A DNA stretch of 13,400 bases, taken from IMG/VR virus record IMGVR_UViG_2565956633_000006. The stretch is one strand, 5' to 3'. This document shows, piece by piece, positions 1 through 5,866 of the stretch. The position numbers and the translations under genes were made by a program. The notes under the pieces were generated by a model. It searched no databases, was not told the origin of the DNA, and was given only the letters and a program-made list of their open reading frames with translations. The stretch's first letter is position 1, and the number at the start of each line of letters is the position of its first letter. Source of the stretch: a virus (lineage: Duplodnaviria; Heunggongvirae; Uroviricota; Caudoviricetes).

Positions 1-1284
1 TTACAGACTTCTGGAAGGTTGCGCAGCTCTTACAACACGCGGTTGATCTTCCGCGGCGTCTTCCAGCGCACTTAAATCACGGTCTTTCACTTCTGGCATT
101 TTCAGCGCAGAGATTAAACCAATCACTGAATATGCCATGATCATAATGGCGATCGGATACCAGGATTCCGTCATGGTGCAGAAAATACCCGCCAGGATAG
201 GACCAAAACCGGAAGCGATAAGACCACCAATTTCTTTAGAAATAGCCATCCGGGTAAAGCGGTTTTTACAGCCGAACATTTCTGCCATGGTAATATTTTC
301 CAGAGCAAATAATCCCAGCACCGCACAGTTATGAATCACAATCAGTGCAACCATAATGGTGCTCGGGGCATAGCTTTTATCTACGATGATAGAAAGCATT
401 GGCCATGCCAGCACAATCGCGGAGGTATTCATAATAATATACGGGATCCGGCGACCAATTTTATCGGATAACCAACCAAGGAACGGAATGGTCATAAAGC
501 CGAGAATCGAACTGATCATCAATGCATCTGTTGGAATTGCTTTGTTAAACAATAACGTCTGCACTAAATAGCCCGCAAGGAAAGTCTGAATTAAACCTGA
601 GTTACCCGCCTGACCAAAACGCAGCCCTGTTGCCAGCCAGAAGGATTTGCTCTGGAACATGCTACCAGCAGGTGCAGGTTTTGCTGTCGGTTGGTTGCTG
701 TCGTTAACCTTCTCAAAAACCGGGCTTTCTTTCAGATTCATACGCAACCAGATAGCAAAGACCATCACGACAACGCTCGCCAGGAACGGTATACGCCATC
801 CCCACGCCAGCAGTTCCTCTTTACTGAGAATGAAGAACATAAAGGCCCAGATTGCCGTTGCGCTTAAAGTTCCGCAGTTAGTTCCCATAGCCACAAATGA
901 GGAGATAATTCCGCGCTTACCTTTTGGCGCATATTCCGCCAGCATCGTACCGGCACCGGAAATTTCCGCACCTGCACCCAATCCCTGAATAATACGCAGC
1001 GTCACCAGCAAGATAGGGGCAAAAACACCAATCTGTGCATAGGTCGGTAACACACCAATTAAGGTGGTACAGATCCCCATCATGGTGATGGTAATAAAGA
1101 GCACTTTTTTACGCCCTATTCTGTCGCCCATTTTGCCGAAAATAAATGCTCCGACAATACGCGCCACATAACCTGCACCGTAGGTTCCCATTGCCAGAAT
1201 TAACGCCATTGCCGTTGATGATTCAGGAAAAAATATTTCATGAAACACTATCGCTGCGCCGAGCGAATATAACTGGAAATCCAT
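1..1284 (-). CDS. ydfJ: MFS (metabolite:H+ symporter family) transporter, N-terminally truncated at the prophage junction
   Basis: 427-aa ORF with many hydrophobic helices and GRK/R motifs typical of MFS. The product starts at MDFQLYSLG, aligning with the conserved (W)YDF..YG motif of MHS transporters, so about 25 N-terminal residues are missing. ATG at 1282-1284 has no convincing Shine-Dalgarno upstream. Stop at 1-3. Confidence 0.8.
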   Translation of the reverse strand: MDFQLYSLGAAIVFHEIFFPESSTAMALILAMGTYGAGYVARIVGAFIFGKMGDRIGRKKVLFITITMMGICTTLIGVLPTYAQIGVFAPILLVTLRIIQGLGAGAEISGAGTMLAEYAPKGKRGIISSFVAMGTNCGTLSATAIWAFMFFILSKEELLAWGWRIPFLASVVVMVFAIWLRMNLKESPVFEKVNDSNQPTAKPAPAGSMFQSKSFWLATGLRFGQAGNSGLIQTFLAGYLVQTLLFNKAIPTDALMISSILGFMTIPFLGWLSDKIGRRIPYIIMNTSAIVLAWPMLSIIVDKSYAPSTIMVALIVIHNCAVLGLFALENITMAEMFGCKNRFTRMAISKEIGGLIASGFGPILAGIFCTMTESWYPIAIMIMAYSVIGLISALKMPEVKDRDLSALEDAAEDQPRVVRAAQPSRSL

Positions 1285-1888
1285 AATTCACAGGTGTTTT
1301 TTCCCATCCTGTGGTTTCCTTGGCGTTTTCTAGGTTTTTTCAGATAGTTGCATTTTTTAAAAAGCATCCTAAGTTCGATCTCAGTGTCTATCTGGGGCCT
1401 ATTTCTGTCCCATATATGCCCCAAAAAAAACTCCCCAACAGATAAGTAGTTTTTTCATGGATTTATGCGTAAAATCAAGAACGGCTGGAAATCATTCAAT
1501 ACTCACACTATCGAAAAATTTACCAGCCAACCGCAGCACGTTCTTGCATAAGGCGTGTCTGCGGTTTTTCAACTATTCAGATACATCACTCCCATCACAT
1601 TCATTCCTCCGCATCAAAGGCATATAGGCTATATCACCTTGATATTTTTATTTTTCAGATAAAAACTGTTATCTATGTATACTTTTAAACCCAATCCGTG
1701 TAGAGTCTCTGCATAAGATAGTTTGCAGTTGCCGCTTCAGCTTGCGCCATAAACCGCCTGATTTTTGCTGCCACCTGTTAGCATTCCTGTATACCTGAAA
1801 CGACAATGTTTATCTACGAACTTTAAGAACACCCAAGATAAAAATTGTCAACTATATCATATATAACACATTACTAATTCGAGGCTAT

Positions 1889-2002
1889 ATGAACAGCATA
1901 CTGATAATCACATCTCTCCTTATCATATTCAGCATTTTTAGTCATGCCCTAATAAAATTAGGGATTGGCATATCCAATAACCCAGACAAAACCGATGTAT
2001 AA
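1889..2002 (+). CDS. Hypothetical 37-aa hydrophobic small protein ([37 protein letters not shown])
   Basis: ATG at 1889 preceded by GAGG at 1881-1884; single predicted transmembrane helix followed by a polar tail; stop TAA at 2000-2002. Below the ORF-track length cutoff; found by reading the DNA. Confidence 0.25.
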
Positions 2003-2070
2003 GTCAACATATCCTGAATCAGACATACAATATCGCAATGAAAATCAATAATATTTTAAGGAATATCTTC

Positions 2071-2304
2071 ATGAAATCAAAAGACACCCTAAAGTGGTTC
2101 CCTGCGCAGCTTCCTGAAGTAAGAATTATCCTAGGGGATGCTGTAGTGGAAGTAGCAAAACAGGGAAGACCTATCAATACCAGAACATTGCTTGATTACA
2201 TTGAAGGAAACATAAAGAAAAAATCATGGCTGGATAACAAAGAATTATTACAAACAGCGATATCAGTTCTTAAAGACAACCAAAATTTAAATGGTAAAAT
2301 GTAA
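2071..2304 (+). CDS. ydfK: Small prophage protein YdfK (YnaE paralog, cold-shock associated), 77 aa
   Basis: ORF 2038..2304; internal ATG at 2071 (MKSKDTLKWF...) has AAGGA 7 nt upstream, so 2071 is the likely start. Confidence 0.75.
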   Translation: MKSKDTLKWFPAQLPEVRIILGDAVVEVAKQGRPINTRTLLDYIEGNIKKKSWLDNKELLQTAISVLKDNQNLNGKM

Positions 2305-2620
2305 TATAATAAACTTACTTTTTTATCATTTTTCCACTTTAACAACATTTTGCTCCACTTTTCCACGACCAAACAACTTGAAATCTGGTTAAAATAACAC
2401 GCAACACTATTCTTCTTCCTTGAGTCCGCCCGGAACTCGAAAAACAAACCGAGTTAAAGCCATTTTTCACAAAATCGATTTTGGGTCTCACCAAAATTAC
2501 GGGGTTGCATACGCATTCGTTTATTTTCGAACGTGTACATACAAATATGCACAAAAATAATCAAAATTATTTTCTGAGATGCATTATGATATGAACACCA
2601 ATTTCGTATAGAGTCTCACT

Positions 2621-3884: not shown

Positions 3885-4801
3885 TATGCAAGCCTCACAA
3901 TATAGTTAAATGCGATGTTTTTGACGGTGTTTTCCGCGTTACCAGCAGCGTTAACGGTGATGGTATGTCCATGTGAACCAATCGCAACGGAGTGCGTATG
4001 AGCACCAATACCGACAGTATGTGCGTGTGCACCTGCGCTTGCAGCAGTACCCGATACAGAGTGCGTATGAGCGCCTGCAGAAGAAGTGTTAACACTGTAT
4101 TTAGAATAATCAGGTGATCCACTTCCCGGAGCACCACTGGAACCACCTGAAACAAATGTCATCGAATGGGTATGTGCACCGGCTGAAGCAGCCGTACCGC
4201 TAACACTATGGGTATGCGCACCAGTGTTATTCGTGGATTTAGTGCCGTAATCAAACGACGATGTGGTTTTCGTCCCCAAATCCGTACTGGATACGCTGGC
4301 GCTGTGGGTGTGTGATTTAATGCCGTCCTGTTCCTGAGACAATACGGCTCGATCACTGGCGGGCTTGCCCTTAATCGTCCAGCCACGCATATCAGGGATC
4401 ACGCCTGACGGATAAGCGGCTGCAAGTTTCGGGTAAGCAGATTTGTCAAAAGTCTGCCCCTGCATCAGGGCATAACCAGACGGAACGGTATCTGATGGCC
4501 ACGGGATTGGTGCACCGACTGGATAAAACTCTGCAGGAGGATGAGCCGAGGTGTAAAGCTGCGCCCACGGCGACCAGTTTGCGTCGGTCGTATCCCGTCG
4601 TGAACGAATAAATGCCGGAGCATGAGCACCGCTTGTACCACTCCAGCCGATGAGTAACTCACCTTCGCCAACGGCTGTCATCCCTTTCAGGTGAATGATA
4701 TTTCCATACGCTGTTGGATATCCGTTGTTATACACCTCGTATAACTCAAGACCTGTTGCCCCCTGCGTATTGTCTGTCAGCGCGGTTACCCGCGTATCGT
4801 T
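3884..4801 (-). pseudogene. stfQ: Side tail fibre protein, C-terminal fragment (lambda Stf-like)
   Basis: Open frame from the stop at 4802-4804 down to the stop at 3884-3886, with no ATG near the 5' end (first start-like codon is GTG at 4733-4735, without an SD). Product carries repeated GAHTHS...[10 protein letters not shown] His-rich motifs and ends ...[11 protein letters not shown] as in lambda Stf. Confidence 0.85.
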
Positions 4802-4851
4802 TCATCGGCGCGGGCAATGGCAGCATCGAACAGGTTATCGGAATCAGCCAC
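4786..4851 (-). pseudogene. Remnant of lambda FII-like head-tail joining gene (first 21 codons only)
   Basis: GGGAGG followed by GTG GCT GAT TCC GAT AAC CTG TTC GAT GCT GCC ATT GCC CGC GCC GAT GAA ACG ATA CGC GGG TAA, i.e. [21 protein letters not shown], matching the lambda FII N-terminus ([21 protein letters not shown]) as I recall it. Start is GTG here, and the frame stops where the stf-derived sequence begins. Confidence 0.6.
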
Positions 4852-4862
4852 AGCGCCTCCCG

Positions 4863-5258
4863 TTATTGCATTCTGGCCAGGCCATGTTCTGTCATTTCGG
4901 CTGCCACACCGGCAGAGACACGAAACGCCGTTCCCGGCAGCACAAATGCCACAGGCTCATCCCGCGTGGCGTGAAGTGCATCAGTATGCAGCGTCACCAG
5001 TGCCACGACCGTGACCAGAGCAGCCGTATCAATCACGGTATCCGGCTGCGCTGATACCACCTCATTTTCATGTCCGGTCAGCGCATTTTCCGGGCTGACA
5101 GATGTGTCCTGACCGGCAGCGTCATCCGTGTCATCAAGCTCCTCTTCCAGCTCTGCCACACGGAGCACCAGTTCTTCTTTCGTCCCCGTCAGGCTGACAT
5201 CACGGTTCAGTTGCTCACCCAGCACCTGAAGACGGGCAATCAGTTCATCTTTCGTCAT
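4863..5258 (-). CDS. Lambda FI-like DNA packaging protein, 131 aa
   Basis: Product from the internal ATG at 5256-5258 (MTKDELIARLQVLGEQLNRDVSLTGTKEEL...) matches lambda gpFI; strong SD (GGAGGAG) upstream. The longer ORF-track start at 5297 lacks an SD. Confidence 0.85.
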   Translation of the reverse strand: MTKDELIARLQVLGEQLNRDVSLTGTKEELVLRVAELEEELDDTDDAAGQDTSVSPENALTGHENEVVSAQPDTVIDTAALVTVVALVTLHTDALHATRDEPVAFVLPGTAFRVSAGVAAEMTEHGLARMQ

Positions 5259-5279
5259 GGACTCCTCCACAGAGAGAAA

Positions 5280-5297
5280 ATGGCCCCGAAGGGCCAT
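5280..5297 (-). terminator. GC-rich hairpin between the E remnant and FI (ATGGCCC-TTCG-GGGCCAT on the minus strand, then TTTCTCTCT)
   Basis: Perfect 7-bp stem with a 4-nt loop, followed by a U-rich tract on the coding (minus) strand; could act as attenuator or mRNA stabiliser. Confidence 0.35.
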
Positions 5298-5299
5298 GA

Positions 5300-5866
5300 T
5301 TACGCCAGTTGTACGGACACGAACGCATCAGGATCAGCCAGCAGCATCAGCGGTGCTGACTGAATCATGGTGAACTCACGCGCCGGATCGCCGGTGGTCA
5401 CCCAGTTTTTCGGGTAGCGGGCAGAGGCGTTAATACCTTCGCGCTGTGCGTCCGCATCCTGAATGCAGCCATAGGTGCGCAGACCGCGTGCCTGAGTGTT
5501 CCCCAGCACCATCGTGTTGTCCGGCAGGAAGTTCTTTTTGACGTCGTTTTCCACGTACTGTCCGGAATACACGACGATCGCCGTATCGCCATACATCCCC
5601 TTATAGGACACCGCTTCGCCCAGGTCTTTTACCGCTGTCTCCAGCTCGGAATTAGAGCCGCGACGGGTATCCAGCTTCTCCTTGACGGCTTTGAAGGAAC
5701 GGAACAGCGCCCAGCCTTTCGGATCAAACACGATGATATTCACCACGCCGCTGGCGTTCAGCGCGTAGGCTTCGATATCGTCGGTCGGGTCATACGTGGA
5801 CTTGTCACGCTTGCTCCACTCCGTGCCGCCGGACTGCGTGATGTTGTTCGCCGCACTGCGGCCCAT
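5300..5866 (-). pseudogene. Major capsid protein (lambda gpE-like), C-terminal remnant of about 188 codons
   Basis: Product ends ...NTMVLGNTQARGLRTYGCIQDADAQREGINASARYPKNWVTTGDPAREFTMIQSAPLMLLADPDAFVSVQLA, matching the C-terminus of lambda E; the 5' half is absent and replaced by the Nu1-like gene. Confidence 0.85.

Follow-up and report, generated by a model that had tools for sequence, protein, structure and literature searches.

The 37-codon frame that begins with the ATG at position 1889 of the window (the whole stretch of viral DNA that was analysed, 13,400 nucleotides of IMG/VR record IMGVR_UViG_2565956633_000006, Caudoviricetes, read 5' to 3') is, almost beyond doubt, the annotated and genuinely coding gene ynfT. 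It is very likely that this ORF specifies a translated, 37-residue protein of a narrow family carried by phages of the lambdoid type and by cryptic prophages derived from them, in this case Qin, and that it is the first gene of an accessory cassette, ynfT-ydfK. The original prediction was made in a region that would otherwise have been called non-coding, a description that did not hold, as the region contains ynfT (b4748), annotated as a YnaM/YnfT family gene. The gene is already known, with annotation in K-12 and RefSeq, curated family models and published evidence of translation; as a discovery it matters little, being a rediscovery. Of more general interest are that a true small gene was picked out of raw sequence by a reader without tools, that YnfT is a very widespread and strongly conserved phage-borne predicted membrane peptide, and that Ribo-seq and RNA-seq analyses relying on unique mapping are blind to ynfT and to its Rac twin, ynaM, around the start codon.

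Identity and anatomy of ynfT

Coordinate conversion places the RefSeq ynfT CDS of strain S1 exactly on the frame, and ynfT of E. coli K-12 MG1655 (b4748, 1632890–1633003), which lies inside the 'cryptic prophage Qin', falls on the same local coordinates. The DNA of the frame matches b4748 base for base, and its product is the protein that K-12 encodes twice, as YnfT (b4748) and as YnaM (b4744, the Rac twin), the two genes differing by three synonymous bases. Its location, too, is that of the K-12 gene: the left end of Qin, with ydfJ and ydfK as its neighbours. YnfT matches the Pfam family PF23676 'YnaM-like' over residues 1–37 of 37 (96.2 bits, cut-off 27) and the full 34-position profile of NCBIfam NF041477 over residues 2–34 (63.9 bits, cut-off 35); its match in PHROGs is phrog_35882 (E 3e-20), a family of unknown function.

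Over its first 4 kb the window is ~98.8% identical to K-12 MG1655. The stfQ/nohA region (4072–5866) contains ~1 kb that is extra or rearranged with respect to K-12, with alignment breaks at 4072–4191 and 4788–5866; because of this extra sequence, we assign the window to an E. coli strain other than K-12 whose Qin tail-fibre region has suffered less deletion.

The anatomy that was read from the letters, namely an ATG with GAGG 4 nt upstream that opens a 37-residue frame, a hydrophobic helix followed by a short polar tail, and a position between a transporter remnant and ydfK, is confirmed by the sequence, the ORF list and the annotation (Table 1). The Kyte-Doolittle 19-residue mean reaches its maximum of 2.52 over residues 4–22, and the AlphaFold2 model consists of one helix spanning residues 2–30, with a mean pLDDT of 88.7 and values of 89–97 across residues 1–30; from these models we infer that YnfT is inserted in the membrane. 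By simple helical-wheel geometry, T8, S15, H19 and K23 form a polar stripe on one face of the predicted helix. The charge pattern gives little guidance on the topology of YnfT, as the N-terminus is uncharged and the charges on the C-terminal side (K23, D33, K34 and D36) roughly cancel. When the interval 1285–2070 was shuffled with dinucleotides preserved, an ATG ORF of at least 30 residues with a Shine-Dalgarno-like motif and comparable hydrophobicity arose in only 2 of 2000 shuffles, and the frame is thus unlikely to be a chance product of AT-rich DNA.

Table 1. Features of ynfT and its surroundings (positions in the window)
Feature	Position	Strand	Basis or remark
Truncated ydfJ (MFS transporter gene)	1–1284	-	Annotation
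Block in common with the Rac prophage (ynaM-ynaE-pinR), ~99% identity	1527–3300	+	blastn, Qin versus Rac loci
Minimal two-gene cassette, ynfT + ydfK	1836–2308	+	AT-rich; exact extent of homology with Salmonella phage 118970_sal3
GAGG, Shine-Dalgarno-like	1881–1884	+	Spacer CTAT at 1885–1888 (4 nt), then start codon; read from sequence
ynfT CDS, 37 codons + TAA	1889–2002	+	ATG 1889–1891, TAA 2000–2002; YnaM/YnfT family small protein
Predicted transmembrane helix, codons 4–28	1898–1972	+	Kyte-Doolittle peak, AlphaFold2 helix
Polar tail SNNPDKTDV, codons 29–37	1973–1999	+	Alignment and translations of copies
ynfT-ydfK spacer, 68 nt	2003–2070	+	Highly conserved; promoter-like match and literature-predicted Fur site cluster
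ydfK, 77 aa, RefSeq 'cold shock protein YdfK', Pfam PF27475 YnaE	2071–2304	+	Annotation

Conservation and selection

The reading had been made to depend on conservation of the frame in related prophages, and here the comparison came out clearly in its favour. We aligned 15 homologous regions drawn from E. coli chromosomes, E. ruysiae, Shigella, the phages Turner and 2H10, and Salmonella phage 118970_sal3, and 14 of them keep the 37-codon frame with the same start, stop and GAGG spacing. The motif and its spacing persist in the Salmonella phage copy even where flanking bases differ, such that Shine-Dalgarno motif, start and stop are all conserved across ~21% DNA divergence. All other frames across the gene, on both strands, are interrupted by stops.

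The substitutions are those expected of a peptide whose sequence is under purifying selection, with dN/dS values of 0.04–0.08 between the homologous prophage and phage copies. Rac-type copies differ by 3–4 substitutions, all of them synonymous (in the K-12 Rac copy three, all at third codon positions), and the 2H10 type by six synonymous changes and one non-synonymous change (S18G). Against Salmonella phage 118970_sal3, which is the sole distant comparator for dN/dS, as the contig scan yielded only Escherichia and Shigella loci and three metagenome-bin contigs of E. coli DNA, there are 15 synonymous and 8 non-synonymous differences (dS 1.27, dN 0.10, dN/dS 0.08), and third codon positions hold 15 of the 23. 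Despite a dS of ~1.3, a block of 12 residues (25–36) is invariant in all intact copies examined, whether of E. coli, 2H10 type or Salmonella phage. Divergence from phage 2H10 amounts to 6.1% in ynfT, 12–15% in the non-coding DNA upstream and 2.9% in the ynfT-ydfK spacer.

One natural pseudogene was found, at the Qin position of E. coli ECGI0523 (L014, 4001–4110), where the frame is lost after codon 11 through the insertion of 1 nt and the deletion of 2 nt; this locus shows extra divergence upstream as well. Since a natural copy has been frameshifted, ynfT is dispensable and its loss is tolerated.

Published expression evidence and the missing ribosome peak

Absence of a translation signal at 1889 would have spoken against the original prediction, and published work has already supplied such a signal in the form of a tagged protein. 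VanOrsdel et al. 2018 (PMC6001520) tagged 80 short ORFs on the chromosome with SPA at their 3' ends, and Table 1 of that study ('SPs detected in this study') includes a peptide at K-12 1632890–1633003, between ydfJ and ydfK, printed as 'ynfQ' (now ynfT). The identical YnaM of the Rac prophage is in the same list; detection was by immunoblot, and both ynfT and ynaM were positive in an earlier tetracycline ribosome-profiling screen (PMC6001520). A 2024 review of the E. coli 'y-ome', based on EcoCyc, places ynfT among the uncharacterised Qin genes, and in one RNA-seq study ynfT mRNA was up 5.7-fold together with deaD and rhlE.

In the work of Weaver et al. (10.1101/511675), YnaM-SPA was more abundant in LB than most of their new small proteins, and YnaM showed no ribosome density at its start codon with either retapamulin or Onc112; reads were mapped 'uniquely', with two mismatches allowed. 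In K-12, Qin ynfT-ydfK-pinQ and Rac ynaM-ynaE-pinR have ~1.87 kb in common at 99.1% identity, and the two copies are identical over the 75 nt that correspond to 1837–1911, which span the ynfT/ynaM start codon. As a consequence of this identity, initiation footprints would map to both copies and be discarded under unique mapping, which probably explains why YnaM lacks a start peak despite its abundance. For the same reason, initiation profiling in K-12 would fail for these genes if reads that map to more than one place were dropped.

Distribution in E. coli and its phages

A megablast search with positions 1600–2400 (801 bp) as the query against 5426 complete E. coli genomes matched 2809 of them, where the segment is annotated as 'ynfT: YnaM/YnfT family protein' followed by 'ydfK: cold shock protein YdfK'. 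The gene itself is in 2807 of the 5426, at up to three copies per genome. Phage records with ynfT number 11 for Escherichia lambdoid phages (among them mEp460, 2H10, Tritos, Turner, Kati and HannyBb) and two for one Salmonella phage; plaque-forming lambdoid phages carry it as well (for example mEp460, 2H10, Tritos, Turner and Kati). The phage distribution was taken from a DNA search, as filtered tblastn of YnfT against phages used only the last 15 residues, the helix being masked as low-complexity. An exhaustive HMMER search of 1.84 billion cluster representatives (50% identity clusters) returned just four YnfT matches, all of them near-identical variants or fragments. Judging by these searches, the YnaM/YnfT family is narrow, limited to Escherichia, Shigella and Salmonella phage lineages, yet common.

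Three contigs from metagenome bins labelled Draconibacterium orientale, Caldithrix sp. and Alistipes sp. (L005, L006 and L008) carry the E. coli Qin segment at 99–100% identity, most likely through bin contamination in public records.

The type I toxin question

The architecture had been likened to both small membrane proteins and type I toxins. The first likeness stands, in that a genuine CDS encodes a single predicted helix; the second is not supported, as neither a family match nor an antitoxin RNA was found and the twin protein accumulates in LB. We consider it very unlikely that YnfT is a type I toxin, which would depolarise the inner membrane and be held off by an antisense or nearby small RNA. 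YnfT does qualify as a small hydrophobic peptide, its 37 residues, single predicted helix and Kyte-Doolittle value giving it an outline broadly like that of TisB, Ldr and Hok-type toxins; the gene lies in a prophage, and one transcriptome study clustered ynaM with ldrB and ldrC. Beyond this general shape, the resemblance is faint. The NCBIfam PepG1 model aligns to YnfT with E 0.055, at a score of 13.1 bits against a cut-off of 70, which is not a match, and no toxin family was found for YnfT in Pfam, so it does not belong to a known toxin family on that evidence. Tagged chromosomal YnaM was present at relatively high levels in LB (10.1101/511675), unlike a silenced toxin.

The search for a partner RNA gave a similar picture. 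A promoter-like match on the minus strand (2080–2053) would read antisense through ynfT, but the number of promoter-like matches is within chance and no terminator-like element was found on the minus strand. Neither the sense RNA (1836–2075; z -0.87) nor the antisense RNA (2060–1860; z -1.04) folds more stably than shuffled sequences, and the Shine-Dalgarno motif is unpaired in the minimum-free-energy structure of the former. No Rfam family reached threshold on either strand, and between ydfJ and pinQ no sRNA gene is annotated in K-12. The literature search on ynfT and ynaM found no report of toxicity upon overexpression.

A sub-threshold Rfam match to CssrB, a Shigella sRNA, covers the full model at 1532–1669 on the minus strand (24.4 bits, gathering score 76, E 0.019). 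The match is upstream of ynfT on the other strand with no ORF overlap, in conserved non-coding DNA, and was judged irrelevant.

An accessory cassette with ydfK

In every copy fetched, from E. coli, phage and Salmonella phage loci alike, ydfK follows ynfT directly on the same strand, 68 nt downstream. The cassette is located close to the prophage end, flanked on one side by the attachment-site side and on the other by the pin invertase and tail-fibre genes; in E. coli elements, ynfT-ydfK is followed by a pin-type invertase and then by tail-fibre assembly and tail-fibre genes on the opposite strand. Its upstream neighbours vary, and include truncated ydfJ, a DinI-like gene next to prfC, a SAM methyltransferase and a phage integrase. 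Homology among lambdoid elements starts at 1445–1527, whereas homology with Salmonella phage 118970_sal3 (78.7% identity) is confined to ynfT, ydfK and little else (Table 1). The GC content of the cassette block is 0.32–0.35, against 0.45–0.55 in the flanks; along the profile it drops to 0.32–0.36 in this neighbourhood, compared with 0.43–0.57 in coding DNA to either side (ydfJ, and pinQ onward). Morons are defined in PMC3594210, and ynfT-ydfK resembles that class in having a composition unlike that of its neighbours and differing neighbours in related phages, both of which characterise mobile accessory cassettes of the 'moron' type; expression from the cryptic prophage, in LB cultures, is documented in the literature.

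Control signals for the cassette, a moron being expected to bring its own promoter and terminator, were sought in several ways. Promoter-like matches were at chance level (7, against 5.1 ± 2.0 expected), such that no transcription start site could be assigned, and the terminator scan found no intrinsic terminator after ydfK. The sigma-70-like match in the spacer, at 2004–2031, is not above chance. A promoter motif reported for ydfK from genomic SELEX (TTCCCA-16-GATAAT) maps inside ydfJ at 882–909, 1 kb upstream, and the motif reported for ynaE is absent from the window; near pinQ, no repeat of note was found that would mark an invertible segment. For ydfK, at its old start, and likewise for ynaE, Chen et al. 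2007 had predicted a cluster of Fur sites (17.1 bits); converting between genome versions with an offset that we estimated ourselves puts it at ~2047, at the spacer sequence GAAAATCAATAATATTTT. Together, the conserved spacer and the predicted Fur cluster suggest that ydfK has its own control region.

The YdfK protein has been reported as detected (PMC5594050), and ydfK and ynaE are described in the literature as cold-shock genes. Its family (Pfam PF27475, phrog_2718) is somewhat wider than YnaM/YnfT. At 55–64% identity, YdfK has homologues in Enterobacter, Erwinia, Limnobaculum and certain contigs of E. coli and Salmonella, none of them with a ynfT-like ORF upstream, and unfiltered tblastn around ydfK homologues found YnfT in phage-type loci only. 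Given these distant homologues, ydfK does not need ynfT, and an obligate coupling of the two genes was rejected; on such sequence comparisons, ynfT appears to have been gained in the phage lineage specifically.

The distant ydfK homologues of Enterobacter, Erwinia and some E. coli and Salmonella adjoin a gene for a ~2860-residue GH94 glycoside hydrolase, or other neighbours. Small YnfU-like and GnsAB-like genes, relatives of small Qin genes, lie near distant ydfK homologues or the Limnobaculum homologue (L025), outside any obvious prophage.

Pfam places YdfK in the uncharacterised family PF27475 only. Its AlphaFold2 model has three helices (mean pLDDT 80.6), and the best match to this model among PDB entries, as found by Foldseek, is the small E. 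coli regulator YmgB/AriR (2oxl_A; target TM-score 0.81, rmsd 2.0 Å over 59 columns, E 0.045, 15% identity). This predicted fold hints that YdfK, despite its 'cold shock' name, could be a connector or regulator like AriR and not a protein of the Csp type.

The constant distance and orientation of the two genes, the unusual conservation of the spacer between them, the cold-shock description of ydfK and ynaE, and the joint rise of ynfT mRNA with deaD and rhlE in one dataset would all suit a cis-acting upstream ORF, in which the act of translating ynfT, and not the peptide, tunes cold-induced ydfK. We regard this as highly improbable: a pure upstream ORF has no need of the strong purifying selection that is seen on the amino acids of YnfT (including the invariant residues 25–36), the tagged peptide persists well enough for detection, a separate promoter-like site lies in the spacer, and an upstream ORF would be expected wherever ydfK occurs, whereas the 55–64% identical homologues are without one. 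That the frame is merely a chance ORF, as its shortness, the AT-rich region (whose codons favour Ile, Leu and Phe) and the one frameshifted strain might suggest, is effectively refuted by the shuffle test, the codon-position bias and dN/dS, the conserved start and stop signals, the curated family models and the immunoblot.

Proposed role and comparison with known systems

In the reading that we favour, ynfT would be expressed from the prophage as a moron-type gene that benefits the lysogen, and not as a killer toxin. YnfT would be made from the repressed or cryptic prophage and, as predicted, inserted in the inner membrane as a single-pass helix, where it would make helix-helix contact with a larger membrane component, as small membrane proteins and membrane morons do; its partner could be a protein of the host or the machinery through which the DNA of an incoming phage enters. 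On one side of the membrane, the invariant tail would be exposed as the surface for specific contacts. This particular mode of action, that of an accessory inner-membrane peptide that binds helix to helix, is suggested by anatomy and precedent, and we propose it tentatively, as possible rather than probable.

A bolder version, which we think unlikely, is that YnfT and YdfK form a mobile two-gene prophage module that reshapes the envelope or blocks incoming phage DNA, with YnfT as the membrane effector and YdfK, through its YmgB/AriR-like predicted fold, as a cytoplasmic regulator, perhaps mainly at low temperature. Neither YnfT nor YdfK matched a defence protein in PADLOC-DB at E ≤ 1. If such a module were real, it would be carried by half of all E. 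coli.

Among known systems, the type I toxins (Hok, Ldr, TisB and PepG1) resemble YnfT as short, hydrophobic, helical peptides that are often prophage-associated; YnfT differs in that no antitoxin RNA and no structured 5' region were found, its scores against toxin models are sub-threshold, and the protein is present in unstressed cells. AcrZ, MgrB, MgtS and CydX are single-pass small membrane regulators of E. coli, each of fewer than 50 residues with one helix and a short polar tail, and are encoded by core-genome genes with known partners. They were reportedly found by the same tagging strategy, and by the same group of laboratories, as YnfT. YnfT is like these proteins in its size, its one predicted helix and its polar tail, and unlike them in being phage-borne.

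The first moron to be described, HK97 gp15, is a small inner-membrane protein for superinfection exclusion that blocks DNA entry (PMC3594210). It has no sequence relation to YnfT, being related to YebO, and it is encoded inside the tail operon, whereas ynfT lies near the prophage end beside ydfK and pin and has no promoter or terminator of its own that we could find. Both are nonetheless small membrane-type proteins that are expressed from prophages and encoded by accessory DNA of lambdoid phages with a composition unlike that of its neighbours, and by this analogy HK97 gp15 may be considered the closest functional precedent for YnfT.
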